Source of the DNA: Verrucomicrobiota bacterium
GTDB lineage: Bacteria > Verrucomicrobiota > Verrucomicrobiia > Chthoniobacterales > JAFAMB01
Reading direction: 5' to 3'
Length of the DNA: 64,000 bases
Assembly: GCA_019236675.1 (NCBI GenBank)
Contig: JAFAIO010000144.1
Coordinates: forward strand, 34-64,033
The notes under the pieces were generated by a model. The model saw nothing but the letters and a program-made list of their open reading frames with translations. It did not search any database and was not told where the DNA came from. A program made the translations under genes and the position numbers. Positions 29,636-64,000 of the stretch are shown one piece after another; the stretch's first letter is position 1, and each line of letters begins with the position of its first letter.

Positions 29636-29664
29636 CGTCGGCCTCGCAAGCGAGGCAGCGCTCC
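29588..29664. repeat. Repeat family B, compact copy: perfect 26-bp inverted repeat with a 25-nt loop.
   Basis: GGAGCGCTGCCTCGCTTGCGAGGCCG (29588-29613) is the exact reverse complement of 29639-29664. The flanking 2 bp also pair. Confidence 0.9.
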
Positions 29665-29857
29665 AGGACTGCACTTGGTGAGCGGAGTACCCCCCATCTT
29701 TAGTAGAGAACGCGAGTTCTAGTTTTCTATGGTTACAATCTCGCGAAGTCTCGGCTACCTGCTTCGAGCGTCGTAAAAAGTTCCCCACACCGCACTTAAT
29801 GCGGAATTCTTCTGCGAATGGGGCCAGAAATTTTCCGCCTCGGGGCAACCCTTGTTT

Positions 29858-29907: not shown

Positions 29908-32811
29908 TTACTTCTCGCTCAACGAATCTGGCGTAAGTTGCTGCAAGTTATTCTCGGCCCTAGAAATTTCTCTCGCCAGGTCTCCACGCAACAAGATCGC
30001 TTTGCCATCTCGGGCGCGATACAAGACCTGAAGACCACGCTCGATGTATTTGCGCCCCTCTTCTTTCTCGCCCGTCTTTGCGAGCGAGTTTCCATAGCTG
30101 GCCAGCACTTCCCCATACAACGCGCTCTCTGGCGGGAAATCTCTAACTCGAATGTTCTGCTCCGCTAATTCCAAAGCCTGCTTGAACCAGCGACACGCTT
30201 CTTTGGAGTCCGCGGTTGCTTCCGCTACCTCTCCTTGGCCCGCGTAGAAACCGGCAAGTAGGAAGCGCTGGTCTGGTGAGTCCACATTTTGCCTGGCGAC
30301 TTCTTCTGTGAGTGGGGCTAAAACTCGCGAGTTAATTTGTTTAGCGTTCTCGAAATCCCCGGATCTTGTGTAGCACTCCATCAGGTCGAGTCCGACCATC
30401 CCGAGCCACTCCTTGGCCCAGTGAGGAGGTCTAGGCTGGTGGTTTACCTTTTCGGCCAAATCAACTGCTTCCCTCAGTAATCTGGCCGCTTCCTGATATT
30501 GGCCCTGGTCGATCAATAAAAGACCGTAGTTGTTTAGACCCACTATCAAGTCTTGCTCGAAATAGGCATTATTCGGATCGACGGTGCACAACCTCCGAAG
30601 GACCGCTATCGCCTGATCAGCGAGATCCGATTTCTCGTGGGTCGGATCGAGGCAGAACAGCAAACAGCCCCAACGCCCAATCGCTCGTTCTGAACGAAAT
30701 TTGAGAGCGGCATTATCGGCGGCGTGCTCAGCGGCATCACGGCGAATAGCCAGCGCTGTTCGAATAGGCGCCTGAAACGCGGCAGCATCTCCGCGATCGA
30801 GCTGACGCACACCTAAAGCTTCCAAGCTGCTCGCGTAGGAATCGATGATATCGGGATCATCGGGCGCCAATTTGTACGCCCGTTGTCCGTAGGCTACGGC
30901 TTCATTCAAGAAGCGCAGCGTATCCTCTGCGTTCGCGGCCCGGCCAAGCATGTAGCCTTTCAGCGCAAGAGAATCGCAAAGGCTAGCCTGCAACAATGCT
31001 TGAGCGCTACTCGGCAACCCGCTGCTCGTCTCTAAGGAGCGCAGTCTGACAAATGCCTCGTCTAAAACTTTGAGTGATGCTGCCGACTCACCTGCTTTTC
31101 CAAAAGCCCGCGCCTCTTCATAAACTGCTTTCGCTAGTACCAGCTTGTCGCCAAGGTCCGTAGATAGCAGGCACAAAGTCCTGGCCTGGGCTTCCGCCTT
31201 TTCGGCTCGTTGAATGGCCGTGTGGCCGTCACCCATTTCTTCCAGAGCGCGCGCCAAAGTGATTTCGGTTTGCACCTTCGCTCGGATCTGTCCCGGACTG
31301 CGGGCTGGATCACCGTCGCCACGGCTAGTCGAATCGATTCGATCGAACACCTGGACCGCCTCCTTCAGCACTTCAAGCCGATGTTCCACCGGAGCAGCCA
31401 TTGTTTCCAATCGAGTGGATAGAACGCCGATCATGTTGCGGGCCGAAGAAGCCGCCAACTCACGCTGTTGCAGTGCGTAATCACGTTCCTTCCGAACTGC
31501 GCGATAGGAAGCCAATGTTATCCCGAGTGCAATCATTCCGGCTACAACTGTTATGGACGTGGCAATCGTTGCCGTCGGATGGCGCTGGATTAATCTCCGC
31601 ATTCGATAGCCCCAACTCTCCGGACGAGCGGCCACTGGGCGGCACTCCAGGAAATTCTGGAGGTCATCGACGAAATGCTCGACGCTCTTGTATCGGTCAG
31701 CCGGCTGTTTCTGCAGCGCCTTTGATATGATGGCTTCGAGATCAGTTCTTCGTGATTTGGGAATGCTGATACTTGTTTCTTCCGATCGTACCGGCAGCCG
31801 TTTAGGTTCACCTTTACAAATCCTTTCTAACAGTTCGAATCCACCGGCAGCCTCGTTTTCCGTAATTGGGCTGAACGGATGAGAACCGGCAACGAGCTCA
31901 AACAAAATGATCCCGAGCGAAAAAATGTCGGCGGCGGTGGTAATCTCCTCGCCATGAATCTGCTCAGGGCTGCTGTACCGAGGCGTTAATGGCCCGAGCC
32001 CGATCGTACGGTCCTGAGGGCCAGACTCTTGCTCAGACACGAGCGTTTTTGCGATCCCGAAGTCAATCAACCGCGGGGTGCCGTCGCTAGTAACAAGAAT
32101 ATTTGAAGGCTTAAGGTCCCGATGGACCACCAGGTTTTTGTGCGCATACGAAACCGCGGAACAGACCTTACAGAACAGTTCGAGAATCTGGTACAGATCG
32201 CGGCCCTTATTCCGACAGTAAGCCTTGATCGGTTCGCCGTCCACGTACTCGATGGCGAGGTAAGGCAATCCGTTCTCCAGGGCGCCTCCTTCTAAGAAAC
32301 GAGCAATGAAAGGATGGTTCAACCGCGCCAGAATCCGGCGTTCTCTCCGGAACCGGGAGATAAACAGTCGAGGATCGATCGGCTGGCGCATCACCTTGAT
32401 TGCTGCGCGTTGGATCGAGAGTCCATCGTTGTCGAAGGAGCGTTCAGCTAGATAGACGGTGCCCATTCCGCCCCGAGAAATCTCACGTAGAACGCGCCAA
32501 GAGTCGATCAGGGTTCCCGGTTGAAGAGTCTCTGGCGGTGCCAGTTGGTCATCTGATTCTTCGCTCTCGTCGAGAAGCCCAAGCTCGGATTGCAAAGCAG
32601 GAGTTTCTAGAAATTGGTCCTCCGAATTGGCATACCTTAGTAATGAAAGGAGCTCCTCCGCTAACTCAGGGTTCTGAGCGCGCCTTTCATTTATCCAGGT
32701 GACGCGCTCACTCGGGTGCATCTCGACTGCTTCCGCGAACAAGCTCCTTAACTCCACGGATTCAAATGAGAGTCCACTCTGCGGGTAACCGTCTGAAAGA
32801 TGGCTGCGCAT
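29908..32811 (-). CDS. Transmembrane Ser/Thr protein kinase (STK3) with a long TPR-like extracytoplasmic or C-terminal region.
   Basis: It has kinase motifs HRDLKPSNILV, DFGIAK and SPEQ, and one TM segment (ATIATSITVVAGMIALGITLASY). Helical repeats extend to the C-terminus. It starts 17 nt after the sigma3 stop. Confidence 0.9.
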   Translation of the reverse strand: MRSHLSDGYPQSGLSFESVELRSLFAEAVEMHPSERVTWINERRAQNPELAEELLSLLRYANSEDQFLETPALQSELGLLDESEESDDQLAPPETLQPGTLIDSWRVLREISRGGMGTVYLAERSFDNDGLSIQRAAIKVMRQPIDPRLFISRFRRERRILARLNHPFIARFLEGGALENGLPYLAIEYVDGEPIKAYCRNKGRDLYQILELFCKVCSAVSYAHKNLVVHRDLKPSNILVTSDGTPRLIDFGIAKTLVSEQESGPQDRTIGLGPLTPRYSSPEQIHGEEITTAADIFSLGIILFELVAGSHPFSPITENEAAGGFELLERICKGEPKRLPVRSEETSISIPKSRRTDLEAIISKALQKQPADRYKSVEHFVDDLQNFLECRPVAARPESWGYRMRRLIQRHPTATIATSITVVAGMIALGITLASYRAVRKERDYALQQRELAASSARNMIGVLSTRLETMAAPVEHRLEVLKEAVQVFDRIDSTSRGDGDPARSPGQIRAKVQTEITLARALEEMGDGHTAIQRAEKAEAQARTLCLLSTDLGDKLVLAKAVYEEARAFGKAGESAASLKVLDEAFVRLRSLETSSGLPSSAQALLQASLCDSLALKGYMLGRAANAEDTLRFLNEAVAYGQRAYKLAPDDPDIIDSYASSLEALGVRQLDRGDAAAFQAPIRTALAIRRDAAEHAADNAALKFRSERAIGRWGCLLFCLDPTHEKSDLADQAIAVLRRLCTVDPNNAYFEQDLIVGLNNYGLLLIDQGQYQEAARLLREAVDLAEKVNHQPRPPHWAKEWLGMVGLDLMECYTRSGDFENAKQINSRVLAPLTEEVARQNVDSPDQRFLLAGFYAGQGEVAEATADSKEACRWFKQALELAEQNIRVRDFPPESALYGEVLASYGNSLAKTGEKEEGRKYIERGLQVLYRARDGKAILLRGDLAREISRAENNLQQLTPDSLSEK

Positions 32812-34010: not shown

Positions 34011-36104
34011 TTACCGTTGGGTCGTGAGAATCAACGGGACGGACTCCGTTGCACCCGGCGGATTAACGGAATAAACCCGGATATAGTACGACGTACCCGG
34101 CAATAGACCGGTCAGCTCAACATGAGTTCCAGCGGAACAATAGTGGGTGAAATTAAAGGCGTTACTCATATCGTCCGCTTCGACCACATACCCGGTCGCA
34201 TTCTTGGCTGCGGTCCAACTAACGCGAGCGGTTGTCTTGCCAGCAGTCCCGTGAACCCCGGTTACCGGGTCGGGTGTCCGTCCGTTGTGAGGATGGAACA
34301 ATAGGAGATTGTGCACCAGATCTTCACCCCACATCGATCCCCACCCCGTGCAATTGTCATAGCCACCACCGGCGGTGTATCCGGGTATACCATAGAGATT
34401 AACGTTCCCGTTAGTGCCATCCGTGATATCGTCATAGCCGTCGGTTTCTAAAGCCTGATAATAAAGAAGCGGATTAACGAACCCGACCCGGCCCAGCCCG
34501 ATCGTGCGCCAGGCCGAGTCAACGATACTGATATAGCTGGCCCAAATCGGCGAAGAAGCGCTTGTCCCACCGACTTGCTGCCAGCCACCGTTCAATGCCG
34601 AATAAACCGAAACACCGGTTACGGGACTCGCGACTGCCGCCACATCCGGCATGTTTCGCATGGTGGAAGATCCGCCATTAAACGAGGCAACGGAGACCAG
34701 TTGACCTTGCGAATCAGTAAAGAGTTGCCAAGACGGAATCGCCCAGTAAGCACTCACTCCGCCGCCGGTCGCTCCGGCGCCGGCGCCGAGCAAGTTCCAA
34801 ACGTCTTCGAGCTCGTAAACCGAGTCCGGTCCAGTGTAAAGGCTCGTGCCGCCGACAGAGGTTACATAAGGCTGTGCACCAGGATCGGAAACATTGAGAC
34901 CTGAACCGGTGCGACCGTACGCACCCTGATCGCCGGCACTCACGAAAACAGCTTGTCCCTGGGCGGCGAGCTGCTTCAGCACCTTACCTTCAGCCGCCAT
35001 CTGCGTATTGCCCATCATTACCTCATCTGCTCCGTACGAAATACTAATGACCTGGGCCGCGTCGTCATTGGCCATCGCCACCAGCGAATCCAGCAAGGCC
35101 ACCGGGAACGAATCTTGGCCGTCCTCGTACACGATCACTTTTTTAACCTTCGGATTGATACCGATGATCATGTCAATGTCCAAAACGGCCTCGAGCTCAA
35201 CCCCCGGATCGTCAATGCCGCCGCCATATCCGTTTACGTTACGGTCTTCGACCGGAACCGCCGGAAGATGGTTCTGAGCCTCATATTTGGCCACGTCCGT
35301 CGGATCGAAACCACCTTGTTCAAAAACCGCTACCGTCTCTATCCCGCTCTGGCTTAACTCCAGGGGAACGTTATAAGCAATCCGCAAATCTTTTGCATCA
35401 TAGGCGCCTCCAGGTCCATTACCCCCGGCAGTATCGCTGCGAACACCCGGTAACAACCGATCTAACTCCTGGTTCTGGCCCCGCTTATACACCTGTACCA
35501 ATGGAGCAGACTGGATGTAATTGGAAAAACCGACGATCCCAGTGATGCGTCCTTGCAATTCACTGGGAACGCTCGGCTTTACCCTCGGAGAATAAAAAAT
35601 TCTGCCGTCCGCTGCTTGATAGTTATTAATTTCAACACCAAAAAGCTTTTCCAACTGCCCGATTGAACCTCGCACTGTTAACGTCGTTCGCGCAATGTTC
35701 CGTTCCTGGCTCAACAGTCCGTTAGTTTTTGCCCAGTTTTCCACGGCTGAATAATTCGTCACGCTTGGCCCGAACTTCGCACCGTATTCCTCGGGAGTAA
35801 GGTACCTCCCATATAATGGATCGTTTGGCGTCGATACTCGCTGGACAAATTCATCTGCGCCGTTTTCGTCCGAAAGCGGCAGCAGGAGGATAATATTAAT
35901 TAACTTATCCGTTTCCGTGTGCGAGACCAGTTTGGACGTGGAAAGAGCGGCTGGGAGATCAATCGTTATCTCGTTCGCGTCGTTCGTGGCTGCCAACGCG
36001 AGTTTGGATGAGCTCACTAAGAGAGCTCCGGACACGCAGCAATAAAACGTCATTGCTGTAAAACAGGCGGACACACGCCAGCTGCTGAAGGGGTAATTGC
36101 GCAT
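34011..36104 (-). CDS. Secreted S53 sedolisin-type peptidase with an FN3-like tail; third gene of a three-peptidase operon.
   Basis: Motifs are VELEAVLDIDMIIG, SAGDQG and GGTSASSPIW, with a pro-kumamolisin-like prodomain. It starts 12 nt after the upstream gene. Confidence 0.9.
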   Translation of the reverse strand: MRNYPFSSWRVSACFTAMTFYCCVSGALLVSSSKLALAATNDANEITIDLPAALSTSKLVSHTETDKLINIILLLPLSDENGADEFVQRVSTPNDPLYGRYLTPEEYGAKFGPSVTNYSAVENWAKTNGLLSQERNIARTTLTVRGSIGQLEKLFGVEINNYQAADGRIFYSPRVKPSVPSELQGRITGIVGFSNYIQSAPLVQVYKRGQNQELDRLLPGVRSDTAGGNGPGGAYDAKDLRIAYNVPLELSQSGIETVAVFEQGGFDPTDVAKYEAQNHLPAVPVEDRNVNGYGGGIDDPGVELEAVLDIDMIIGINPKVKKVIVYEDGQDSFPVALLDSLVAMANDDAAQVISISYGADEVMMGNTQMAAEGKVLKQLAAQGQAVFVSAGDQGAYGRTGSGLNVSDPGAQPYVTSVGGTSLYTGPDSVYELEDVWNLLGAGAGATGGGVSAYWAIPSWQLFTDSQGQLVSVASFNGGSSTMRNMPDVAAVASPVTGVSVYSALNGGWQQVGGTSASSPIWASYISIVDSAWRTIGLGRVGFVNPLLYYQALETDGYDDITDGTNGNVNLYGIPGYTAGGGYDNCTGWGSMWGEDLVHNLLLFHPHNGRTPDPVTGVHGTAGKTTARVSWTAAKNATGYVVEADDMSNAFNFTHYCSAGTHVELTGLLPGTSYYIRVYSVNPPGATESVPLILTTQR

Positions 36105-36116
36105 ATTCTCTTGTTG

Positions 36117-38912
36117 CTATTTCAGCGGCGCTTCGACCGCTTTTTGTGCGTTGATGAATCCGTATCCATCTAGCGGAGTCCAACCCGACCCGATTTGGTT
36201 GGTGAAAGTGCCGGAAAAGGAGGTGCCGTCATCGAATACGCCAAAAAATGTCGCGCCGGGGCCAACCAACGTGCCACTCGGGATCAAGATTCCTTGCCCG
36301 AATAGATCAGCGGCGCCGCCTCCTGAACTATCGCCGCCACCGGTTCCCGTTTGCGACGCAAAATAGGAAGAGTGTTGTTCCAGGTGTCCTATACCAAAGC
36401 GAAGAGTCGCTTTCTGGTTCAATTTGCCCGGTGCAAACGCGAGATTGAGTTGATAGAATTCACCGGTAATTGAGGGTGCAGGCGCCTGCTCACCATAGCT
36501 GGCTTTTACATCCGAAGTGCTAATTCCCTGCGATGTGCTGGAAATCGTGAAGGGATAACCTCCTAACGTTGTCGGAGCCGTGAAAACCTCGCCTGGGTAG
36601 CCTTGATAGATGTTGCCTCCCGTCGGGTCGGCCCCCTGGAGATTGATTGATAGGGAAGAGATCGATCCGCGTCCGGACATTCGGACGGTGAATTGGTTTG
36701 GATTGATCTCGCCAATATCCGAGTAATCGGCTGCGGCTTGAATCGTCACCGTCCTCCCGCCAGCTGCCGCCCGACCGAAAGCATAGTAAGGGGTCAGGGA
36801 ATGCGGAAAGGTGCTCCGTTCTAACACGCTGGTCATTTGCTCCGGGGTAACAGATCCGGATCCACCATGCGCCTGCAATACCAGCGCAGCTATGGCCGCG
36901 GCATGGGGCGTTGCCGCGCTGGTACCGAAGAAGTTCGGGAAACTGCTGGCGTCCTGCGTTGTTGTGCTACCGAAAAACGTGGTATACGCGCCGTCCATGC
37001 CGGCAAAGTTTGGTCGCATACGGACTTCTGGCTTGCTCAACCGATTATTGTCTGTATCGAAGTAGATCGTGGTCGGGCCAGGCGACGTGTATGGTTCCGG
37101 AGCAAAAGGACGAAAAGCGCTGTAGGCCGCGACTCCATTTGCGCCGGCTGCACAGTTATGACCGAAACTGGCAGGACTCAGGTAGGAACCATAATTAAGG
37201 ACCTCAAACCCGAGTGCCAGATACCGTATGCGGTCTGCGGGGTGGGCTACCGTCGGAATGGTCGAGCGGGCAATGACCAGCTGAAAATTAAACGGATATT
37301 CGAACGCTTGAAGCAGAATTGGTTGTTTGGTGGCAAAAGCGTCCTCGGAGATTGCGGTCAAGAACGTTCCGTTTACGTCAAAAAGAAGCAGGTTGAAGTT
37401 GCTTGTGATCTCCGGTGCTGGACTAACGTTTACCTGGTTGATTTTGACGTAGAACGCACCGACCAACTGCGTGTCAGCAGTCACCACCACGGAATATTTG
37501 CCCGCCGCCGGTAAGGCCACTTCCGTCGGCGTTTGATTACTGTAAGCTGACACCAAGACAGTACCCTGAGGATCGAGTATCGCGACTACGACGTCAGTCC
37601 CACCCGATACCGTCGGCCCAGCCTCGAGCCTTACTAAGGTATTGGCGGACGCCATCTCCAGGTTAAAGGTGACGCTCGAGGACGCTGACGTCAATTCTCC
37701 CGTTTTGTTTAGCAGGAGTTTGCCAATCGACTGTTTGGTGTAGGCGTACGGATCGTTCCATTGAAAATCGATTGCGTTTGCTCCAAACACGTCGCCCGGA
37801 GCACATTGTTGGGCGATATCCTGGCCTCCATCCGTGCGAAAATTATGAAATCCGCCAGCGTATAGGCTGGGGTCGACCCCGTTTAGATTAATGTTAGTTC
37901 CCTTTAGCGCCGCCTGCGGATTTGCCGGATCGAAGCGCACCAGCTTGAACTCTGCGTCATAGGCCTGTACCCCGGGAACATTACCTGCCGCAGAAAAATA
38001 GGCGACTCCTTTTGAAGCGACGTAATCGACGGCTTGGCCTATGGGTCCGTCTTGGAACATCGGTTCTGCATAGTAGTAGACGTCGTCACAAATTACGTCG
38101 GCTCCAAACACATCCTTAAGTGCCCTGATGTTGTTTGCAAAATCGATGTACCCGTTAAACGCAGTGGCGAATCCCAGTTGAGCCTTTGGCGTCAGGTCTT
38201 CAACGATTTGGAGCATGGCTCGGCCTTCATCGGCTCCCTGCGAGTAATCTTCGATGACGACGACCGGAGTCGTGTTACCAAATGGATTACCAGGACCCGG
38301 CAGGTCGCCGGTTTGAATATCCGCCGTGGCGTCCGGTTGTGAACCGGATAAACCATAGGCATCGAAACTGTCCGATAACGCTCCTACCTTTGTACCGGTC
38401 CCATCGTATTTACCAGCTATTTCATTCACTCGGTGCTGAACGAAGCCTTGAGTCGTTACTGCCCCAATATTCGCCACTGGCTTCCAAACCAGGGAGACAG
38501 AGGTAACCCCCGGTATCTGGGCGATTTGCGCAGCGGTGTTTGGGGTAACGTACGCTTCGATCGTACCCGCTTGGAAAGCGCGATCTTCGGCAATAATCGT
38601 AGCGTCAGATTGAGACGCCACCGCTCCTCGAACCTCAGCAATTGTCTTTGTCCCGTCTAAATGAATATCTACCATTATCCGTCCCTGAGTATCCTTCAGG
38701 GCTCGCTTTAAAATCCTCTGTCCTTGAGTCGGCGTTCTAATTAGGCTCCGCTGGAAAGCAGGCGATACCTGACTGTCTTTGACCACATCGTACAAGCCGC
38801 AGCCCAGGTTATTGGGAATCGAATCGCCATGCGCACTCGCATAGGAGAACAGCGCAAGAACTAACACTGATGAATACGTGAGACCGTGTCGCCGAGCAGT
38901 CACTGTAAACAT
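36117..38912 (-). CDS. Secreted S8-like subtilase homolog lacking the canonical His (paralog A).
   Basis: It has the Asp motif KVGALSDSFD, the AAGN oxyanion motif (YFSAAGN) and the Ser motif GTSAATPHAAAIAAL. There is no His between the Asp and AAGN motifs. The start is placed at the ATG at 38912 (signal peptide MFTVTARRHGLTY...), with an alternative ATG at 38972. Confidence 0.8.
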   Translation of the reverse strand: MFTVTARRHGLTYSSVLVLALFSYASAHGDSIPNNLGCGLYDVVKDSQVSPAFQRSLIRTPTQGQRILKRALKDTQGRIMVDIHLDGTKTIAEVRGAVASQSDATIIAEDRAFQAGTIEAYVTPNTAAQIAQIPGVTSVSLVWKPVANIGAVTTQGFVQHRVNEIAGKYDGTGTKVGALSDSFDAYGLSGSQPDATADIQTGDLPGPGNPFGNTTPVVVIEDYSQGADEGRAMLQIVEDLTPKAQLGFATAFNGYIDFANNIRALKDVFGADVICDDVYYYAEPMFQDGPIGQAVDYVASKGVAYFSAAGNVPGVQAYDAEFKLVRFDPANPQAALKGTNINLNGVDPSLYAGGFHNFRTDGGQDIAQQCAPGDVFGANAIDFQWNDPYAYTKQSIGKLLLNKTGELTSASSSVTFNLEMASANTLVRLEAGPTVSGGTDVVVAILDPQGTVLVSAYSNQTPTEVALPAAGKYSVVVTADTQLVGAFYVKINQVNVSPAPEITSNFNLLLFDVNGTFLTAISEDAFATKQPILLQAFEYPFNFQLVIARSTIPTVAHPADRIRYLALGFEVLNYGSYLSPASFGHNCAAGANGVAAYSAFRPFAPEPYTSPGPTTIYFDTDNNRLSKPEVRMRPNFAGMDGAYTTFFGSTTTQDASSFPNFFGTSAATPHAAAIAALVLQAHGGSGSVTPEQMTSVLERSTFPHSLTPYYAFGRAAAGGRTVTIQAAADYSDIGEINPNQFTVRMSGRGSISSLSINLQGADPTGGNIYQGYPGEVFTAPTTLGGYPFTISSTSQGISTSDVKASYGEQAPAPSITGEFYQLNLAFAPGKLNQKATLRFGIGHLEQHSSYFASQTGTGGGDSSGGGAADLFGQGILIPSGTLVGPGATFFGVFDDGTSFSGTFTNQIGSGWTPLDGYGFINAQKAVEAPLK

Positions 38913-38981
38913 TGCTTTTACCTTTCGATACAGAACTTGTGTCATCTGCGGTTTGTTTTGGGCTTGATACATGGCCGTTCC

Positions 38982-41828
38982 CTATTTGCTGAGCGGTAAG
39001 CCCACGGCTTCCTGCGCGTTGATGAAGCCGTAGCCATCGAGCGGCGTCCAACCGGCGCCAATTGCGTCTGTAAATACGCCGCTGAACTGGGTTCCGTCCT
39101 CTAGTGTCCCGCTAAATGTCGCGCCCGGTCCAATGATTTGGCCACCCGGCAATGAAACCCCTTCGCCCATTAGATTCGCCGTGCCTCCGCCAGAGCTGTC
39201 GCCGCCGCCAGTTCCAGTCGCGGAAGCGTAGTACGACGAATGCTGCTCATGCCGGGCCACGCCAAACTGCAGGACAGCGCCGTTGCCCAGTTTACCTCGG
39301 GCAACCTTTAGGTTCAGTTGATAGTACTCATGTGGTACCGAAGGAGGCCCCGCCTGTCCCGAAAACGACGCCGTTACATCCGAAGCGCCGATACCAACTG
39401 AGTCCGGTGAAACTGTGAACGGGTAACCAAGATAGTTATTGCTATAACTCGCCTGCTCCGGGAAGAAGATTTCGCCAGGGTAACGGTTATAGATATTGCC
39501 GCCGGTCGGATTAGCGCCTGTGAGGTTGATGGTGAGACTGGAGATTGCGCCCGTACCGGACAATTGAACTGTAAATTGGTCCGGATTGAATTGCGCAAAA
39601 TAAGAATTGTCCGACTTCACCTGAACTAAGACCTTGCTTCCACCGGCAACCGCCGTACCGGAGGCGTAGTAGGGAGTTAGAGAATGCGGGAACGTGCTTC
39701 GCTGCAAAACGTCGCGCATCTGATCCGGGGTTACAGAACCCGAGCCGCCGTGTGCTTGGATGACCAGACCGGCAATGGCCGCTGCGTGAGGAGCGGCAGC
39801 GCTCGTGCCGAAAAAGTTAGGAAAGGCACTAGCGTCTTGAGTGGTCGTGCCACCGAAGAAAGTGGTGAATGCGCCGTCCATGCCGGCGAAGTTCGGTCTT
39901 TGTCTCACCTGCGGACTCGCTAGTTTGTGCCCGTTAACATCAAAATAGATTGTAGCAGGACCAGGTGAACAATACGCCTCGGGAATGAAAGGTCGGAAGG
40001 CGCTATACGCCGCAATGCCGTTGGCGCCTTGAGCCACGCAATGGCCGTAAGTCGTCGGTGTTAAGTACGAATTGTAATTAAGCGAATAACTACTGTAGAG
40101 AAATCGGTATCGTATTTGATCAGCAGGGTGAGCCGCTTTTGGTATATTTGACCGGGCGATAACCAATTGCCCTATCCCCATATCAGGCGTTGATCCCAGT
40201 AAAATTGGCTGTTTCGTTGCTAACGCGTCCCCGGACACTGCGCCCTGGTAGGTTCCATACGGGTCGAAAAATAGGATGTTAAAGTTACTGGTTATCTGTG
40301 GCGCTGGAGTGACGAGCTCTTCATTAACCTTGACGTAGAAATTGCCAAAATTGTTTTGGAACGCGGTTACAACAATCGTGTACTTACCGCCTAGTTGCAG
40401 CGGCAAAACCGTCGGAAACAATTCAAACGGGTTCGCTATCGCGCTAAATATTTCGTTCCCATCCGGATCTATCAGACTTAGCTGTACGGCGAAGGGAATG
40501 GGCGGTGGGACGTTGGTTTCTCCGGCGTCTATTCTAACCAAAGTGTTAGCCGGGACCGTGAAGGAGTAGACCAGACGGGAGGTCGGATTGGTTATGTCCC
40601 CTGTCACATCCAACACGGTCCTTCCTAGGGAGTCGGTAACGAATGCATACGGGTCATTCCACTGCAGAACAATCGCGTCGGTGCTCACTTCGCATTTCTG
40701 AGCGATGTCTTGGCCGCCATCAGTGCGGAAATTGTGAAAACCGCCCGCGTAAAGACTCGGATCCACTCCGGTCAGGTTTATATTCGTTCCCTTTAGCGCC
40801 GCTTGCGGGTTGGCCGGATCAAACGGCACAGGTCTAAAAGTGGAAACATAACTTTGGATCGCTGGTGCGTTTCCTGCCGCGGAGAAGTAGGAAACTCCCT
40901 TAGAGGCTACATAATCGACCGCTTGCGCCAGGATACCATCCTGAAACATCGGTTCATCGAAATAGATGATATCGTCGCAGATTACATCCGCTCCGAAAGT
41001 ATCCTTCAGCGCTCGGATATTGTTAGCAAAATCCACTTCACCAACGATTCCTGTGGCAAAACCAAGTTGGGCATTGGGCGCCAGGTCCTCGACAATCTGT
41101 AACATCGCCCGTCCTTCGTCCGTAAAAGTTCCGGCGTCACCGTTGTACAAAGAATCTTCCAAGACGGTGACAGGAGTTATATTGCCGTACGGATTACCGG
41201 GTCCCGGGAGATCGCCTGTGGCGATATCTGCGGCTGCGTCCGGCAAAACACCATTGGCTCCAAATGAGTCGTAACTGTCCGAGAGAGCAGCTATCTTGAT
41301 CCCGGTGCCGTCATATTTGCCGGCAATCTGATCGACTCGATGTTGAACGAATCCCTGGGTCGTCACCGCACCGATTTGGGTCTGCGGTTTCCATACCAGA
41401 GATATAGAAGCAATTCCCGGCTGGGTCGCCAGCCGGACTGCTGCAGAAGGGGTGACATAAGCCTCGATTGTGCCGGCCTGGAAGGACCGATCGACGGCGA
41501 CGACTGCCGCCTCCGGTTCGGCGGCCACCAACTTGTGGATGGTCCCGATCGATTTACTCCCGTCCAAGTGAATATCCACCATGATCCGGCCCTGTTTATC
41601 CTTGACCGCAAACTTGAGAACTCTTTGGCCTGGTGTCGGTTTCCTGATCAGACTGTGCTGAGATGAAGCCGGCGACTGGCTATCTACGATGACGTCATAT
41701 AAACCGTTAGCGAGATTCCTGGGGACCGGGTCAGCACTCAGGATTCCAAACGAAATCCCGGCCAGCATCAGAACGAGTAAGGCTGCCGGCGCGGCACAGC
41801 GCCTCACTTCAAGGGTCAAAGTTTGCAT
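38982..41828 (-). CDS. Secreted S8-like subtilase homolog lacking the canonical His (paralog B).
   Basis: It is collinear with paralog A: IAALSDSYD, DEGRAMLQIVEDLAP, YFSAAGN and GTSAAAPHAAAIAGL. It has a signal peptide. Its stop is 9 nt before the alternative start of paralog A. Confidence 0.8.
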   Translation of the reverse strand: MQTLTLEVRRCAAPAALLVLMLAGISFGILSADPVPRNLANGLYDVIVDSQSPASSQHSLIRKPTPGQRVLKFAVKDKQGRIMVDIHLDGSKSIGTIHKLVAAEPEAAVVAVDRSFQAGTIEAYVTPSAAVRLATQPGIASISLVWKPQTQIGAVTTQGFVQHRVDQIAGKYDGTGIKIAALSDSYDSFGANGVLPDAAADIATGDLPGPGNPYGNITPVTVLEDSLYNGDAGTFTDEGRAMLQIVEDLAPNAQLGFATGIVGEVDFANNIRALKDTFGADVICDDIIYFDEPMFQDGILAQAVDYVASKGVSYFSAAGNAPAIQSYVSTFRPVPFDPANPQAALKGTNINLTGVDPSLYAGGFHNFRTDGGQDIAQKCEVSTDAIVLQWNDPYAFVTDSLGRTVLDVTGDITNPTSRLVYSFTVPANTLVRIDAGETNVPPPIPFAVQLSLIDPDGNEIFSAIANPFELFPTVLPLQLGGKYTIVVTAFQNNFGNFYVKVNEELVTPAPQITSNFNILFFDPYGTYQGAVSGDALATKQPILLGSTPDMGIGQLVIARSNIPKAAHPADQIRYRFLYSSYSLNYNSYLTPTTYGHCVAQGANGIAAYSAFRPFIPEAYCSPGPATIYFDVNGHKLASPQVRQRPNFAGMDGAFTTFFGGTTTQDASAFPNFFGTSAAAPHAAAIAGLVIQAHGGSGSVTPDQMRDVLQRSTFPHSLTPYYASGTAVAGGSKVLVQVKSDNSYFAQFNPDQFTVQLSGTGAISSLTINLTGANPTGGNIYNRYPGEIFFPEQASYSNNYLGYPFTVSPDSVGIGASDVTASFSGQAGPPSVPHEYYQLNLKVARGKLGNGAVLQFGVARHEQHSSYYASATGTGGGDSSGGGTANLMGEGVSLPGGQIIGPGATFSGTLEDGTQFSGVFTDAIGAGWTPLDGYGFINAQEAVGLPLSK

Positions 41829-57675: not shown

Positions 57676-58743
57676 ATGTTTGACGAATTTTCCGGAAATC
57701 CTCCAGCATTGGTGAAGCGCCGGGTGACGGTGCGCCAGATCGCCGAGAAAGCCCGCCTGAGCGTGGCCACCGTCGATCGCGTAATCAACGGGCGCACAAC
57801 CGTGCGTCGCGGGACCGCGTTGCGGGTGCAATCGGCTGCCCAAGCGCTTGGCTATCAGTTCACCGTGCCAATCAGGGTCCGGACGGAGGAGGCTCCCGAG
57901 GCAATAAAGTGCGTCTTTCTGCTCCAGAGAAGAGCCTCTTCTTTTTATCAGCACCTCGCTCAAGAGCTGGAGCAAGCCGGTCAACGGGACCCGCTGCCAG
58001 GCGTCCAGGTAGCCATCGAGCATATGGACGACTATTTAGAGCCGGCCAAGGTGGCGGACACATTGCGCACGTTGGGAGAACAGGTACACGCAGTGGCCGT
58101 GGTGGCGACGGAAAGCAACCCGGTCTCCGATGCGATCGACTTTCTTGCGGAACGACAGATCCCAGTGGTAGCCCTGCTCTCTGACCTCTCATCGCCAAGG
58201 CTGGCAGGCTATGCGGGGATCAATAACCGAATGGCCGGCCGGACTGCTGCGTGGGCGATCGCTCGTTGCGCTGATCGACCCGGCAGGCTTGGCGTGTTAA
58301 TCGGTAGCCACGGCTATATCGGCCAAGAAGAACGTGAGATCGGCTTTCGCAGTTATTTCCGCGAAAAAGGAATCGAATTCACAGTGCTCGAACCGGCGGT
58401 CTGCTTGGATGATCCGGAGATCGCTTATAACCAGACACTCGAACTTCTACAGACAACCGGCGACTTGGTTGGAATCTATAATGTTGGCGGCGGGGCCGGC
58501 GGCGTTCTTCGGGCAATCGAGGAAATCAAACCCTCACGAAAACTCGCTTACGTGTGTCACGAGTTAACACCGGTTACTCGAGCCGGTCTCAGCGCGGGCA
58601 CCATCGACCTGGTGTTGGCGCACGATGTACCGGGGTTGGCTCGTTCCACTTTGAAGATGCTTGCTGACCTAAAAAAGACGCCTTCCGCCAGAAAACAATC
58701 CGTGGTCGTTCCCTTCAACATCTACACCAGTGAGAACATTTGA
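57676..58743 (+). CDS. LacI-family transcriptional regulator.
   Basis: It has the HTH VTVRQIAEKARLSVATVDRVINGR and a periplasmic-binding-protein-like core. Confidence 0.85.
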   Translation: MFDEFSGNPPALVKRRVTVRQIAEKARLSVATVDRVINGRTTVRRGTALRVQSAAQALGYQFTVPIRVRTEEAPEAIKCVFLLQRRASSFYQHLAQELEQAGQRDPLPGVQVAIEHMDDYLEPAKVADTLRTLGEQVHAVAVVATESNPVSDAIDFLAERQIPVVALLSDLSSPRLAGYAGINNRMAGRTAAWAIARCADRPGRLGVLIGSHGYIGQEEREIGFRSYFREKGIEFTVLEPAVCLDDPEIAYNQTLELLQTTGDLVGIYNVGGGAGGVLRAIEEIKPSRKLAYVCHELTPVTRAGLSAGTIDLVLAHDVPGLARSTLKMLADLKKTPSARKQSVVVPFNIYTSENI

Positions 58744-58905: not shown

Positions 58906-58982
58906 GTGTGCATTCGCGGTTACTTTTGCGTTCTTTGCGTTCTTTTGCGGCTATTCCGAATTAATTCCGACGCCTACACCCT

Positions 58983-61265
58983 ATGAGCTCCGAAGCCACA
59001 GCGGTTTTACTGCCTCCGACGAAGTTGGACTACAGTCTGACGGGAGAGAATTCCACTAAAGCCATCGAGCGGGGACTGGCTGAGGCCGACTGGTATCAAT
59101 CCCCGGTTCCGCGCCCTTTAATGCGCCGGCTCTTGGAACGGCGAGATGGTCCCGGCATCCGAGACACCGTTATCTGGTTCGGATTGATTATCGGGTTCGG
59201 TTACTTGACCTGTCGCCTTTGGCCATCTTGGTGGGCCGTTCTTCCTTATCTGATCTACGCAGTTCTTTACGCTTCCACCTCCGATTCGCGCTGGCATGAA
59301 TGCGGACACGGCACGGCGTTTAAGACGGATTGGATGAACAATCTGCTCTACGAGATCGCTTCTTTTATGGTGATGCGCGAATCAACCGTGTGGCGTTGGA
59401 GCCATACCCGGCATCATAGCGACACCATTATCGTTGGCCGTGACCCGGAAATCGCCGTACCTCGACCGGCTGACATCCCACGCGTCATCGGCAGCTTCTT
59501 TAACCTGGGAGTCTATCCCGTCTATTTTCGCCGGATCATCCTGCACAGTGTCGGCAAGACGGCGGCCGACGAGAAGATGTTTATCCCCGAGAGCGAATTT
59601 CCGAAGATCTACACCCGCGCCCGGATTTACGTTGCGATTTACGCAAGCACGATCTTTCTGGCGATCTATACCAGAAGCATTCTTCCGCTTCTGTTAGTCG
59701 GGTTCACTAACCTTTTCGGCACCTGGTTGATGGTCGTTTATGGGCTGACCCAACATGCCGGGCTGGCGGAGAACGTTCTCGACCACCGGCTTAACTGCCG
59801 GACGGTTTACATGAACTTTATCCACCGTTTCCTCTACTGGAATATGAACTATCATGTGGAACACCACATGTTCCCGTTGGTCCCTTATCATGCGGTTCCC
59901 AGGCTGCACGAGGCGGTGAAAGAGGACATGCCAAAGCCTTACCCCGGCCTGTTAGCAACCTACAGGGAGATCATTCCTGCGCTCCTTCGTCAGGCCAAGG
60001 ACGCGGCTTACCATGTAAAGCGCGTCTTGCCTGAACCGAAACCGCGGCTGAATGAAGGCGCTTACCTATCGGAAGCGAGGCCGGACCCTGCAGGTTGGTT
60101 AGAAGTCGGTCCTGCCGCTGACCTGGCGCCGGCAGAAGTGATCCGATTCGAGAACCGGCAGAAGACCTATGCCATTGTCCGGGATGAACATGGCAAACTC
60201 TACGCCATGGACGGTATCTGCACTCACGGCAACACCCACTTGGCAGACGGCCTGGTAAAAGGGAACATCATTGAATGTCCAAAGCATAACGGCCGCTTTA
60301 ATCTGGAGGACGGTTCTCCTGCGCGTGCCCCCATCTGTCGCGGTATCGCCACCTATCCTGTGCAAGAACGCGATGGCCGCCTGTTCTTAAACGTTACTCG
60401 GCCCGGCGGCGCCGGTGCGCGAGCACAAAAAACTCTGCAGCTGCGCGTGGTTAGCAACCGCAGCGTTGCTACCTTTATTAAAGAGCTTGTGCTTGAACCT
60501 ATCGACAGCTCAGAGCCAGTGGAATTTACGCCCGGCGATTATATTCAGCTTGATATCCCCTCTTACGAAAATATCCGGTTTCGTGAATTCGATATCCCGG
60601 AGCCCTATGCGGCGGTTTGGGAGCGTCAGCATGTATTTGACTTGGTTGCTCGCAACGCGGAGACAGGCCGGCGCAACAATTACTCGTTAGCGAGCAACCG
60701 GCAGACCGAACGAACATTACGGTTCAATGTTCGTATCGCCACTCCACCGCCAGGCCAAGATTGTCCGCCGGGCGTCGGGTCAGCATACGTCTTCAATCTC
60801 AAGCCGGGCGACACCCTTACGGCGATTGGTCCGTTCGGCGATTTCCACATCAAACCTACTTTACGAGAAATGGTCTACATCGGCCGGGGATCCGGTATGG
60901 CGCCTTTACGTGCCCATATTTCGCATCTGTTTGAAACCGAGCATACCCATCGCAAAGTCAGTTTTTGGTATGGGGCCCGTTCGGGACAGGAAATCTTTTA
61001 CCAAGATTATTTTCGACAAATCGAGGCCGCGCACGCGAACTTCAAGTTCCATCTAGCACTGTCGACCCCGCTTCCAGAAGACAATTGGACAGGGTTAACC
61101 GGTGTTATTCACGAAGTTGTCTTACAACATTATCTTCGCGATCATCCCGACCCCGCTTCAGTCGAATATTATCTTTGCGGGCCGCCGATGATGATTAAAG
61201 GGGTCAAGAAAATGCTGGCTGAGCTTGGCGTTCCTCCGACTCAAATCGCCTTTGATGAGTTTTGA
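58983..61265 (+). CDS. Three-module fusion: a membrane fatty-acid-desaturase/AlkB-like di-iron domain, a Rieske [2Fe-2S] domain and an NqrF-like FAD/NAD(P)H reductase domain.
   Basis: The His boxes are HECGH, HTRHH and HVEHH, with N-terminal TM helices. The Rieske motifs are CTHGNTHL and CPKHNGRF. The reductase motifs are RNNYSLAS, GRGSGMAPLRAHI, WYGARS and YYLCGPPMM. Confidence 0.85.
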   Translation: MSSEATAVLLPPTKLDYSLTGENSTKAIERGLAEADWYQSPVPRPLMRRLLERRDGPGIRDTVIWFGLIIGFGYLTCRLWPSWWAVLPYLIYAVLYASTSDSRWHECGHGTAFKTDWMNNLLYEIASFMVMRESTVWRWSHTRHHSDTIIVGRDPEIAVPRPADIPRVIGSFFNLGVYPVYFRRIILHSVGKTAADEKMFIPESEFPKIYTRARIYVAIYASTIFLAIYTRSILPLLLVGFTNLFGTWLMVVYGLTQHAGLAENVLDHRLNCRTVYMNFIHRFLYWNMNYHVEHHMFPLVPYHAVPRLHEAVKEDMPKPYPGLLATYREIIPALLRQAKDAAYHVKRVLPEPKPRLNEGAYLSEARPDPAGWLEVGPAADLAPAEVIRFENRQKTYAIVRDEHGKLYAMDGICTHGNTHLADGLVKGNIIECPKHNGRFNLEDGSPARAPICRGIATYPVQERDGRLFLNVTRPGGAGARAQKTLQLRVVSNRSVATFIKELVLEPIDSSEPVEFTPGDYIQLDIPSYENIRFREFDIPEPYAAVWERQHVFDLVARNAETGRRNNYSLASNRQTERTLRFNVRIATPPPGQDCPPGVGSAYVFNLKPGDTLTAIGPFGDFHIKPTLREMVYIGRGSGMAPLRAHISHLFETEHTHRKVSFWYGARSGQEIFYQDYFRQIEAAHANFKFHLALSTPLPEDNWTGLTGVIHEVVLQHYLRDHPDPASVEYYLCGPPMMIKGVKKMLAELGVPPTQIAFDEF

Positions 61266-61388
61266 CGCAGACGTGACGCGCCGGTGTATGAGCGTCTAAG
61301 CGGGGGAAACGTTATCAGCGCTGCTGCCGGATGGGACTTATGGGACCAATAGGACTTATGTGCCAGGCAGTTTGAATAGCATTCTCTA

Positions 61389-61545: not shown

Positions 61546-62058
61546 ATGCGCCGCCTCTTTAGCCTTGTGCTTGTTCTTTGCGGCTTTTGGTCACAGGGAT
61601 TATTCGGAGCTGACCAAACGCATGTTTCAATTGTAGATTATTTTGTCCTCTTGCCGCCGGATACTTTCGAAGGCGCATCACCGTCCTCATGGTTGACCTT
61701 CCTTAAACAGCCGGGCTCAGGCTCCATTGATACTGCTAATGGCTACATGAGCTGTACCGGTGATGGAGCACAGCCGGAGTTCGAGGTTGCGCTATTTCGA
61801 TTCAGCGATGGGCGTCCCCTGCTCGCCATGTCGACCGGTGAGCTTGAAGCCAGGGATTCGATGTTTCTCGTTTTCTACGAACTCGGGAAAGACAACCGGA
61901 TGCACCAAGCTTCCCGTGAAATCTTCCCGATCCGCGACGGCGATGATCGGCAATTTATCCTTCCGAAAAAGGGCCGGACAATAACCGTTAAGAATGCCAA
62001 GACCGCAAAGGTGTTGTCCCAATTTGAATGGAACGGCTCCACATTTCAGCACCAATGA
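61546..62058 (+). CDS. Small secreted protein of unknown function.
   Basis: It has a signal peptide (MRRLFSLVLVLCGFWSQGLFGADQ). I recognised no family. Confidence 0.55.
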   Translation: MRRLFSLVLVLCGFWSQGLFGADQTHVSIVDYFVLLPPDTFEGASPSSWLTFLKQPGSGSIDTANGYMSCTGDGAQPEFEVALFRFSDGRPLLAMSTGELEARDSMFLVFYELGKDNRMHQASREIFPIRDGDDRQFILPKKGRTITVKNAKTAKVLSQFEWNGSTFQHQ

Positions 62059-62185: not shown

Positions 62186-63331
62186 ATGCTAACGAAGCCG
62201 TCCCGCCAGTCTATGAAAAACGCGCTTCTGATACATCTATTTTATTGCCTTTTATTATTCTGTGTCCAGGCAGCATCAGCGGTGCCGACCGCGGAGCTAC
62301 CCCCGATTGGGCATAAGCTAACGGTTGGAGTATATCCCGCTGAACCTTTCAATATCCGGCGAGCGGACGGATCATGGACCGGTATCAGTGTTGATCTTTG
62401 GCGAGAGATTGCCTCCGATCTCAAAGTCGATTTTGAGTTTAGGGAGATCCCGGTTGCGGACCGGTTCACCGCCTTGATGACCGGTTGGATCGACGTTTGT
62501 ATCGGCCCGATAACGGTAACAGCGGAACGCGAAGAGCAGATTGATTTTACCCATCGTTTCTTCACCTCGGGGCTGCGTGTCGCGATGCGGACAAAGGATG
62601 CTGCTCCTAATTCGAATTTAGTTCTCCCCTTGCTAAAAGAATTGCTCTCTGGGCATGTGCTAAAAATCGTCCTTTCCATTCTGGGTATTCTGCTGGCAGC
62701 GTCACTCCTGATTTGGGTTTCTGAGCGACGCAAGAACGCGGCTCACTTTGGAGGGAATGGTAAACGATTCGCGGGCATCGGCTCCGCCGTTTGGTGGTCG
62801 GCTGTTACCATGACGGGTGTTGGATATGGTGACCTTTATCCGCGGACTTTGCTTGGGCGGATCATAGCGATAGGGTGGATGTTCGTCAGTTTAGTAATGA
62901 TCGCCATATTCACGGCAACGATGGCTTCCTTGCTGACGGCCGAGAAATTGGGCGGCCCGAAACCGATCCAGACTCCGGAAGATCTCCGCAGTTTGAGCAT
63001 CGGAACGGCGCCAGACACAACCGCTGAGCAATACGCCAAAATGAATCATCTCAAGTTCAAGAGCATGCCCGCTGAACAGCTTTTACCGGCGCTTAAGAGC
63101 GGCAAAATCGATGCCGTCATCAACGATGCACCCATCCTCTACTATCTCATCCACGCCGAATATGAGAACACACTCGTCGTCCTACCGATTCATTTAGACG
63201 AAGAACTGTATGGCTTCGGGGTTAAGGAAGGAAGCCCGCTGCGCGAATACATCAATCGATCTTTGCTCGAACGACTCGTCCGACCAGAGTGGCATGAGGT
63301 TCTTCGGGGCTACTTGGGCGACTACGAATAA
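62186..63331 (+). CDS. GluR0-like ligand-gated K+ channel: a periplasmic amino-acid-binding (SBP type 3) domain split by a two-TM pore module.
   Basis: The S1 lobe (LTVGVYPAEPF...IDVCIGPITVTAEREEQIDFTHRF) is followed by TM1 and a pore helix. The selectivity filter is TMTGVGYGD (nt 62813-62833). TM2 and the S2 lobe (KIDAVINDAPILYY) follow. An alternative start is the ATG at 62213. Confidence 0.8.
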   Translation: MLTKPSRQSMKNALLIHLFYCLLLFCVQAASAVPTAELPPIGHKLTVGVYPAEPFNIRRADGSWTGISVDLWREIASDLKVDFEFREIPVADRFTALMTGWIDVCIGPITVTAEREEQIDFTHRFFTSGLRVAMRTKDAAPNSNLVLPLLKELLSGHVLKIVLSILGILLAASLLIWVSERRKNAAHFGGNGKRFAGIGSAVWWSAVTMTGVGYGDLYPRTLLGRIIAIGWMFVSLVMIAIFTATMASLLTAEKLGGPKPIQTPEDLRSLSIGTAPDTTAEQYAKMNHLKFKSMPAEQLLPALKSGKIDAVINDAPILYYLIHAEYENTLVVLPIHLDEELYGFGVKEGSPLREYINRSLLERLVRPEWHEVLRGYLGDYE

Positions 63332-63540: not shown

Positions 63541-64000
63541 TTACTGCGTCCTGCCTTTGGGACTCTTTCTTGCAACCAATACTATTAATTCCTGGGACTC
63601 GTCGGTCTCGTTGCGAGGCCGTTTCGGAAACATTTTCCGTTCAATCTCAAAACGGTGTTCCTCTAAAAATGAATATAGCTGACGATTGTCTTTCAGACCT
63701 AGATCGGAAAATAAAGAGTGGTTTCCTCGATACGGTAGATTGAGAACAATAATCCTACCGTTCGGTTTAAGGTAAACCGCAGACCGGTACAGCACTCTGC
63801 GAAAGTCCACGTAGTTCAGCGTGTCCGAGATCAGAATCGTATCCGCCTGTCGGAGCTCTGCGTCTTTTCTGGGATCGATCCCCAGGAATCCGCAGACCCT
63901 GAGCAGAGCCTTTTGGAAACTCAGCCGCCCGACTTGTCCGACCTTCTCTACGTCCAAACGGAGCCTTAGCTCGTCAACCGCCCCACCGTTATCGGCAGCG
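63541..64000 (-). CDS. Partial CDS running off the right edge; possibly a class I SAM-dependent methyltransferase-like protein.
   Basis: The frame is open to nt 64000. ADTILISDTLNYV and LKPNGRIIVLN weakly resemble methyltransferase motifs. Confidence 0.35.
   Translation of the reverse strand, partial: AADNGGAVDELRLRLDVEKVGQVGRLSFQKALLRVCGFLGIDPRKDAELRQADTILISDTLNYVDFRRVLYRSAVYLKPNGRIIVLNLPYRGNHSLFSDLGLKDNRQLYSFLEEHRFEIERKMFPKRPRNETDESQELIVLVARKSPKGRTQ

Follow-up and report, generated by a model that had tools for sequence, protein, structure and literature searches.

The DNA analysed here, called the window below, is a 64,000-nucleotide stretch of contig JAFAIO010000144.1 from a Verrucomicrobiota bacterium (assembly GCA_019236675.1). 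At 58983..61265 the window carries a gene for a protein of 760 amino acids (aa). In this protein a membrane di-iron oxygenase domain, a Rieske ferredoxin and a flavin adenine dinucleotide (FAD)/NADH reductase resembling that of NqrF are joined in one chain. A gene for a LacI-family regulator lies upstream. The features of these two genes are as follows.

57676..58743, + strand: LacI-family regulator with a periplasmic-binding-protein-type sugar-binding domain (LacI helix-turn-helix and Peripla_BP_4, E = 1.1e-28).
58983..61265, + strand: fused oxygenase gene, ATG to TGA, 760 aa, stop codon included in the coordinates.
58983..60062, + strand: residues 1–360, a conserved N-terminal cytosolic segment followed by a four-helix membrane di-iron domain of the FA_desaturase/MocD type (PF00487, structure models).
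59295..59309, + strand: His box 1, HECGH, residues 105–109 (H105 present in 67 of 68 and H109 in 65 of 67 aligned sequences).
59403..59417, + strand: His box 2, HTRHH, residues 141–145 (H141, H144 and H145, conserved in at least 65 of 70 aligned sequences).
59748..59762, + strand: TQHAG, where the fourth membrane helix ends, containing H258 (alignments).
59853..59867, + strand: His box 3, HVEHH, residues 291–295 (H291, H294 and H295, conserved in at least 68 of 71 aligned sequences).
60096..60392, + strand: Rieske-type [2Fe-2S] ferredoxin domain, residues 372–470, with the ligands C413, H415, C432 and H435 (PF00355).
60432..61262, + strand: NqrF-type FAD/NADH reductase module, residues 484–760, ending in a C-terminal Phe (TIGR01941, PDB, Foldseek).

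The oxygenase reading frame is uninterrupted, with no internal stop codons and an even guanine and cytosine content of 0.54–0.55 along its length. Pfam places four domains along the protein in the order FA_desaturase (PF00487, residues 81–321, E = 4.5e-34; 118.8 bits against a gathering score of 29.7), Rieske (PF00355, residues 372–459, E = 3.8e-17), FAD_binding_6 (residues 549–622, a weak match with E = 1.7e-4) and NAD_binding_1 (residues 633–743, E = 2.3e-16). A preliminary description of this DNA had listed three His boxes, a Rieske motif pair, a set of motifs following the pattern of NqrF and an upstream LacI-type regulator. All of these motifs were found in the expected places, and Pfam recognizes the regulator by the two domains listed above. 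The Rieske pair consists of CTHGNTHL (residues 413–420) and CPKHNGRF (432–439). The motifs of the reductase are ATFIKELVLEP (496–506), RNNYS (564–568), NVRIATPPP (582–590), GRGSGMAPLRAHI (634–646), WYGARS (662–667) and YYLCGPPMM (729–737), and the module also contains the signatures GSGMAP and CGPP. Ligand conservation was evaluated in an alignment that took in fused, half-fused and unfused relatives. Each of the eight canonical histidines is kept in at least 93% of the aligned relatives, and the four Rieske ligands are conserved across the family. Two further histidines, H258 and H268, are conserved as well. H258 is invariant in two alignments (A4 and A5) and is kept in 69 of the 71 sequences of a third (A2), and it is a candidate ninth metal ligand.

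AlphaFold2 modelled the whole protein with a mean predicted local distance difference test score (pLDDT) of 89.9 and a predicted template modelling score (pTM) of 0.67. The modelled N-terminal domain contains long helices at residues 55–78, 83–109, 203–230 and 234–258, and the hydropathy maxima lie at residues 62–80 and 223–251. When the membrane domain was modelled by itself, the pLDDT was 85 and the pTM was 0.82. Significant Foldseek matches of this domain in the PDB were limited to three. Two of them are desaturase-like chains of plastid FtsHi motor complexes (8xks and 8xqw), and the third is the alkane hydroxylase FtAlkB (8sbb, E = 2.7e-4). By this comparison the domain shares the helical membrane fold of solved FADS-like members.

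The match with FtAlkB is one of the grounds for reading the protein as a hydroxylase of hydrocarbons or aromatic methyl groups that works in the manner of AlkB or XylM. It is also in line with this reading that the rhizobial protein MocD, to which we return below, is annotated as a 'hydrocarbon oxygenase' and has been likened to the toluene and xylene systems (PMC11387232, PMC5132102), and that self-sufficient fusions of AlkB, ferredoxin and reductase exist (PMC4021335). However, the domain has four long membrane helices, whereas AlkB has six. There is no rubredoxin domain and no match to an alkB-type model, the regulators belong to the sugar-type LacI and AraC families, and no alcohol/aldehyde dehydrogenase or gene of an alkane or aromatic pathway recurs nearby. 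Hydroxylation of a hydrocarbon is thus very unlikely. Membership of the AlkB alkane 1-monooxygenases was rejected on the number of helices, the lack of rubredoxin, the lack of an alkB match and the sugar-type neighbourhood. The 'desaturase/AlkB-like' label of the preliminary description is accordingly right about the FA_desaturase family, but the topology is not that of AlkB.

The reductase module shares 45–48% identity with the FAD/NADH domains of solved NqrF proteins (best PDB match 7qu3, E = 1.1e-85). Its Foldseek superposition gave a template modelling score of 0.97 and a root-mean-square deviation of about 1.1 Å at 48% identity. The Rieske domain, of about 100 residues, resembles the ferredoxin components 2qpz, 1vck, AndAb and HcaC, and its PDB sequence matches are the dioxygenase ferredoxins 2qpz and 1vck. 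We rejected an assignment to the alpha subunits of Rieske non-haem iron oxygenases, since the Rieske domain stands alone and no catalytic-domain family was matched in Pfam, NCBIfam or the PDB.

Could the protein be a true NqrF, the subunit that oxidises NADH in the Na+-translocating NADH:quinone reductase (Na+-NQR)? The nqrF model TIGR01941 scores 341 bits against a cut-off of 295, and the source databases name relatives 'Na+-transporting NADH:ubiquinone oxidoreductase subunit F' (NCBI and JGI pipelines; for example P0002, P0066, P0076, P0099 and P0101). It turned out that these relatives are so labelled because the C-terminal 277 residues alone pass the TIGR01941 cut-off. The match is restricted to model positions 129–403, which is the FAD/NADH half. 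Where NqrF has its N-terminal transmembrane helix and four-Cys plant-type 2Fe-2S domain, this protein has a desaturase and Rieske region of 480 residues, which rules out a true NqrF. In addition, no nqr genes flank the oxygenase in the window or in 79 related loci, and the likelihood of this reading is practically nil. As the preliminary description had proposed, the Rieske domain occupies the slot of the plant-type 2Fe-2S domain, and the model matches only from position 129 onward. The NqrF of Vibrio cholerae and Pseudomonas aeruginosa (PDB 7qu3, 8ad4 and 8a1t) shares with the fused protein a similar FAD/NADH domain and an iron-sulfur domain placed immediately N-terminal to it. The two differ in the iron-sulfur centre (plant-type 2Fe-2S in NqrF, Rieske here), in the FAD motif (RAYS in NqrF, RNNYS here) and in the presence of an nqr operon. 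The electron acceptor is NqrD/E in the one case, and we infer that it is the in-chain di-iron oxygenase in the other. The annotation of this family as NqrF is wrong. It affects hundreds of proteins and can inflate the distribution of Na+-NQR that is inferred for Verrucomicrobiota and Acidobacteriota.

Profile, sequence and fold evidence thus bear out the three modules that the preliminary description had recognized, namely a di-iron membrane domain, a Rieske ferredoxin and a FAD/NADH reductase of the NqrF type. They very probably form a self-sufficient electron chain from NADH through FAD and the Rieske centre to the di-iron site. The path is deduced from the identities of the modules and from the workings of homologous three-component systems. 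The NqrF-like module would transfer hydride from NADH onto FAD, and FAD would hand electrons one at a time to the Rieske [2Fe-2S] centre. This centre would then reduce the His-ligated di-iron site of the four-helix domain at the cytoplasmic face, where O2 would be activated and a C–H bond hydroxylated.

We also assessed how widespread the fused protein is. A search of 5.8 billion protein clusters gave 3708 matches, and the best 120 were inspected. All of these 120 clusters are 749–793 aa long, have the same domains and share 73–93% identity with the window protein. An exact look-up of the window protein in the contig index gave no entry. A scan with one genome per species found a relative in at least 593 species, and the best 80 of these species contain full-length matches with 60–93% identity. 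The best 80 belong to Verrucomicrobiota (40), Acidobacteriota (29), Bacteroidota (4), Kiritimatiellota (2), Chloroflexota (2), Planctomycetota (1) and a betaproteobacterium, Verminephrobacter (1), and one is unclassified. Among them are the isolates Winogradskyella sediminis DSM 28134 (Bacteroidota) and B1221 (Kiritimatiellota). A library clustered at 50% identity contains one full-length representative (760 aa, 65% identity) among the matches listed, which shows that the fused family is tight.

The preliminary description had left room for an assembly-level fusion of separate genes, in which an error of sequencing or assembly conceals a frameshift or stop codon. Unfused three-gene versions do exist in rhizobia, which is in favour of such an artefact. 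It did not hold, however, given full-length relatives in the genomes of at least 593 species and a length of about 760 aa in all of the top 120 clusters. Hundreds of independent assemblies from seven phyla contain the same protein of 749–793 aa with matching linkers. The nearest genome relative (locus L001) has 87% DNA identity over the whole gene without frame-breaking indels. Read-through of a mocDEF operon is impossible because the reductase type differs from the rhizobial one. The probability of an artefact is negligible. The architecture search that the preliminary description had proposed found these relatives in seven phyla among the best 80. Its alternative that the architecture might be common and already characterised is right as to the first part, but a functional study of the fused family was not found in the full-text literature on desaturase–Rieske fusions, MocD/E/F, the demethylation of pinitol or rhizopine, and sugar demethylases. 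The fused enzyme is real, widespread, uncharacterised and systematically misannotated.

The preliminary description overlooked the unfused MocD/MocE/MocF precedent. Residues 1–360 share 55–57% identity, over 94–97% of the length, with unfused genes of the 'fatty acid desaturase family' on Sinorhizobium and Rhizobium megaplasmids and on some plasmids of the Burkholderia group. On this comparison the oxygenase is assigned specifically to the MocD clade. The unfused operons consist of the desaturase-like gene, a MocE-family Rieske ferredoxin, an FAD-dependent oxidoreductase and a PanB paralogue, and a LacI regulator is divergent from the rhizobial operon. In Sinorhizobium meliloti 1021 the genes are named SM_b20817 (LacI), SM_b20818 (mocD, 'hydrocarbon oxygenase'), SM_b20819 (mocE) and SM_b20820 (mocF) (PMC11387232). 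The Rieske domain of the fused protein is 45% identical to the rhizobial MocE-family ferredoxin. The window LacI is 42% identical to the rhizobial LacI over its full length (E = 9e-86), and because the two are homologous, the LacI–oxygenase pair recurs in two very distant lineages. Judged by this homology, the LacI gene is more than a chance neighbour of the oxygenase and is likely its sensor and repressor.

The MocDEF proteins were reported to be needed for catabolism of the rhizopine 3-O-methyl-scyllo-inosamine (3-O-MSI) (Bahar 1998, as cited in PMC5132102). MocD has been described as the oxygenase that turns 3-O-MSI into scyllo-inosamine (PMC2593844). MocDEF of Rhizobium leguminosarum and S. 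meliloti L5-30 and the SM_b20817–20820 operon share with the fused enzyme the oxygenase clade and a carbohydrate or cyclitol context, and SM_b20817–20820 also shares the homologous LacI regulator and has a similar Rieske ferredoxin. The logic of MocDEF would be the same, from NAD(P)H through flavin and Rieske centre to a membrane di-iron site. The difference is that MocDEF consists of three separate proteins, one of which is an 'FAD-dependent oxidoreductase' with about 408 aa and a gene of its own of about 1.2 kb, whereas here one polypeptide contains a fused NqrF/FNR-type module. The hosts also differ, being rhizobia in one case and Verrucomicrobiota, Acidobacteriota and other phyla in the other. 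No mocA, mocB, mocC or mocR gene was found within 10 kb in the window, and none of them recurs in the 79 related loci.

Two-domain proteins of desaturase and Rieske (456–498 aa) are present in the library clustered at 50% identity. This suggests a stepwise origin, in which three genes would have given a two-domain fusion and then the three-domain protein by recruitment of an NqrF-like reductase. The last fusion step, as the comparison suggests, would have swapped the MocF-type oxidoreductase for the NqrF-like reductase and kept the MocD and MocE parts. In a rough neighbour-joining tree, Acidobacteriaceae and Bacteroidota mostly form single clades nested among Verrucomicrobiota. The nesting suggests that the gene was transferred between phyla a few times.

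On the R. leguminosarum Vaf-108 plasmid (locus L083, 7897-10056), the MocD-like gene directly follows a 'sterol desaturase family' gene. The latter is a second membrane di-iron enzyme beside the MocD-like gene. The surroundings are of an inositol-type catabolic kind, with iolD, iolE, Gfo/Idh/MocA, sugar-phosphate isomerase and sugar ABC transporter genes. A hidden Rieske gene was looked for after this MocD-like gene and was not found.

The substrate can be approached through the genes near the oxygenase, which we counted over the 79 related loci. In 23 loci, which come from five phyla, a gene for a divergent xylose-isomerase-like TIM barrel follows the oxygenase directly on the same strand. 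A GalM-type aldose 1-epimerase gene is located directly upstream in 17 loci and often overlaps the start of the oxygenase. A divergent AraC regulator is found in 15 loci, and a XylE-like sugar porter (552 bits on the XylE model) in 7. Typically, a divergent AraC gene is followed by the genes for mutarotase, oxygenase, TIM barrel and sugar porter (for example L027, L029, L033 and L075). In 6 loci, L033 among them, a URO-D-fold protein of about 420 aa, similar to MtaA/CmuA, is encoded within about 8 kb. Its gene is operonic with the oxygenase in some of them (for example L010:7602-8870 and L008), and the methylcobamide methyltransferases MtaA/CmuA match it best, though weakly. When the 61 other operonic neighbours were pooled in a Pfam census, no family occurred in more than two loci.

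The downstream TIM-barrel protein is an uncharacterised partner enzyme of 299 aa (range 282–332 aa; for example L049:4500-5399, L075:12286-13170 and L076:12296-13228). PF01261 matches 10 of 21 members weakly (best E = 3.5e-6), whereas most members lack any Pfam match, and the nearest PDB entry is AsbF (E = 0.003). Residues E132, H134, R135, D160, H163, H193 and E252 are invariant in the family. BLASTP and hhalign detected no similarity between this partner and the rhizobial 'TIM barrel protein' encoded beside mocDEF, and the two share at most, and weakly, a broad superfamily.

Further sugar contexts were found outside these recurring neighbours. At the metagenome locus L084, which holds the closest metagenomic relative with a LacI gene, CUT2 sugar ABC transporter and GMC/gluconate-2-dehydrogenase genes lie downstream of the oxygenase. 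Strains of Pseudomonas syringae from woody hosts carry an additional gene for xylose isomerase beside mocDEF (PMC5132102). The mutarotase, the TIM barrel, the XylE-like porter and the AraC and LacI regulators, together with the L084, rhizobial and P. syringae contexts, indicate a soluble sugar or cyclitol as the substrate. We consider a substrate of the carbohydrate or cyclitol type fairly probable.

These neighbourhoods also bear on whether the protein is a lipid enzyme, that is, a desaturase or hydroxylase of fatty-acyl or other membrane lipids with its own reductase chain. Its Pfam family is FA_desaturase, its active site is membrane-embedded, the Delta(10) desaturase model DesB gives a weak match (31.9 bits against a cut-off of 500), and many loci, the window included, have no sugar genes in the operon. 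On the other hand, the protein is most closely related to genes of the MocD type, which are controlled by LacI regulators of the sugar type. The mutarotase, sugar porter and TIM barrel recur near the oxygenase, but lipid-synthesis genes do not, and no NCBIfam desaturase model comes near its cut-off. A lipid substrate is thus quite unlikely.

We tentatively read the protein as an NADH-driven, self-sufficient membrane monooxygenase of the MocD clade that would act on a sugar or cyclitol, with O-demethylation as the favoured reaction. The substrate would be a small, imported, water-soluble sugar or cyclitol derivative rather than a lipid or hydrocarbon. Hydroxylation of its O-methyl group would result in oxidative O-demethylation, giving the free sugar and formaldehyde. 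We prefer this chemistry because the sole assignment in the clade, the genetic one of MocDEF, is modelled as conversion of 3-O-methyl-scyllo-inosamine to scyllo-inosamine. O-demethylation as such is possible, though we would not call it probable. The upstream LacI would probably sense the substrate or the product. In a pathway of this kind a methyl-ether aldose would be taken up, its anomers equilibrated by the mutarotase, its methyl group removed by the oxygenase, and the product isomerised by the TIM-barrel enzyme.

The same machine could instead carry out another oxidation of a sugar or cyclitol, such as hydroxylation of the C-methyl group of a 6-deoxy sugar (fucose or rhamnose to the galactose or mannose type), hydroxylation of a ring C–H bond, or desaturation, all without release of formaldehyde. 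The evidence for a sugar context fits this equally well, and the GalM-like mutarotase and the XylE-like porter suit unmethylated aldoses. The superfamily carries out both methyl hydroxylation and desaturation, and both reactions are established for AlkB, XylM and desaturases. However, the only genetically assigned member of the clade is modelled as an O-demethylase, and MtaA/CmuA-like and PanB-like neighbours hint at the handling of one-carbon (C1) units. Such another oxidation is unlikely. The PanB (ketopantoate hydroxymethyltransferase) paralogue, which scores under the family cut-offs, closes the unfused mocDEF-like operon of rhizobial plasmids at L081:11858-12658 and L082:11671-12486. It may be a link to the handling of methylene-tetrahydrofolate or formaldehyde. 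Together, the MtaA-like and PanB-like neighbours would hint weakly at C1 chemistry.

Several observations weigh against O-demethylation of a sugar or cyclitol by a MocD-type enzyme. The link to MocD goes through genes named mocD by homology rather than through the authentic rhizopine MocD, and functional data for SM_b20817–20 were not found in the full-text literature. The rhizopine model for MocDEF is itself genetic and not reconstituted. The best Rieske-type model for the Rieske domain, TIGR02377 (MocE family), scores 93.7 bits, which is under its cut-off of 136.15 bits. The sequence RNNYS (60672-60686) has one residue more than the RxYS (RAYS) motif that is found in NqrF and other FNR-type reductases. 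This insertion, an unusual feature of the FAD motif, is present in 40 of 41 fused sequences aligned. About half of the related loci have none of the recurring neighbours. In the window the LacI gene alone adjoins the oxygenase, and the sugar partners come from the loci of relatives. A membrane-embedded active site is odd for a hydrophilic substrate. Finally, a mutarotase suits any free aldose and not specifically a methylated one.

To our knowledge, the P450 route for one algal sugar is the sole route of sugar demethylation known at present, and we know of no reconstitution of MocD-type chemistry. In marine Bacteroidota, a P450 6-O-methyl-D-galactose demethylase has demonstrated activity (Reisky et al. 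2018; PMC6292453). If O-demethylation is correct for the fused enzyme, the outcome of the two systems is the same, namely the loss of a sugar O-methyl group as formaldehyde through an NAD(P)H–ferredoxin chain. The P450 is an unrelated soluble haem catalyst with a separate ferredoxin and reductase, and its demethylation is demonstrated, whereas that of the fused enzyme is inferred. It is conceivable, though doubtful, that the family represents a previously unrecognised and widespread class of self-sufficient membrane di-iron carbohydrate O-demethylases, which would remove methyl ethers from sugars or cyclitols of plant or algal origin and release formaldehyde. If so, Verrucomicrobiota, Acidobacteriota and marine Bacteroidota would have a second way of demethylating sugars, one that needs no P450. 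Such a class would also explain how abundant polysaccharide degraders of soil and freshwater handle methyl-ether sugars or cyclitols. The pinitol study PMC9788770 was checked, and the fused family is not involved in it.

The fusion of redox partners is a theme that recurs. The study of membrane di-iron oxygenases is difficult, as their electron partners are separate and often unidentified. The natural chain of oxygenase, Rieske ferredoxin and NADH reductase is an attractive target for cryo-electron microscopy and kinetics, as a single-chain model of electron delivery. The AlkB–rubredoxin fusion has served the same purpose for AlkB. Fusions of this kind, found in Actinobacteria and in Fontimonas thermophila (AlkB–AlkG, PDB 8sbb), likewise combine a membrane FADS-like di-iron hydroxylase with its electron donor. 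Natural ferredoxin–ferredoxin reductase–AlkB proteins of Leptospira, Limnobacter and Polaromonas (Nie et al. 2014, PMC4021335) also unite the complete chain in a single protein. The domain order is reversed in comparison with these fusions, since the oxygenase is N-terminal in our protein. The electron carrier of the AlkB fusions is rubredoxin or a plant-type ferredoxin, whereas here it is a Rieske centre, and six helices and alkane genes there contrast with four helices and sugar genes here. Thus, the fused enzyme is set apart from MocDEF and from the AlkB fusions by its domain order, Rieske carrier, NqrF-type reductase and sugar context.

The LacI–oxygenase arrangement and the mobility of the gene were then compared between loci. 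At L084 the enzyme is 90% identical and the LacI 75% identical to their counterparts in the window, and the upstream order SDR–ArsR–LacI–oxygenase of the window is repeated. The idea that the pairing is specific to the window was rejected, as this metagenome locus shows the same synteny. In the 80 genome loci, tblastn found no copy of this LacI gene. Scans of the LacI–oxygenase intergenic region for promoters, terminators and inverted repeats gave nothing above background, and no obvious operator was seen. Positions 3265-5560 of L001 align with 58973-61268 of the window at 87% DNA identity, with no frame-breaking indels. The homology begins 10 bases before the start codon, stops 3 bases past the stop codon and resumes only at 63564-64000. 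These boundaries suggest that the oxygenase gene was exchanged or inserted on its own, as a unit of one gene.

Downstream of the oxygenase, the window contains two further open reading frames (ORFs).

61546-62058, + strand: 170-aa ORF directly downstream of the oxygenase, with no match in Pfam and a hydrophobic N-terminus.
62186-63331, + strand: 381-aa GluR0-like channel (Pfam SBP_bac_3 and Lig_chan-Glu_bd with Lig_chan and Ion_trans_2).

Both are missing from L001, and they are probably unrelated to the oxygenase. In the 381-aa protein a solute-binding domain is joined to a two-helix potassium-channel pore, so that it resembles a prokaryotic ligand-gated channel of the GluR0 type. Elsewhere in the window, a giant ORF of 3914 aa occupies 18104-29848 on the − strand. 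It is followed on the same strand by four ORFs of 697–967 aa (29908-32811 and 34011-41828).

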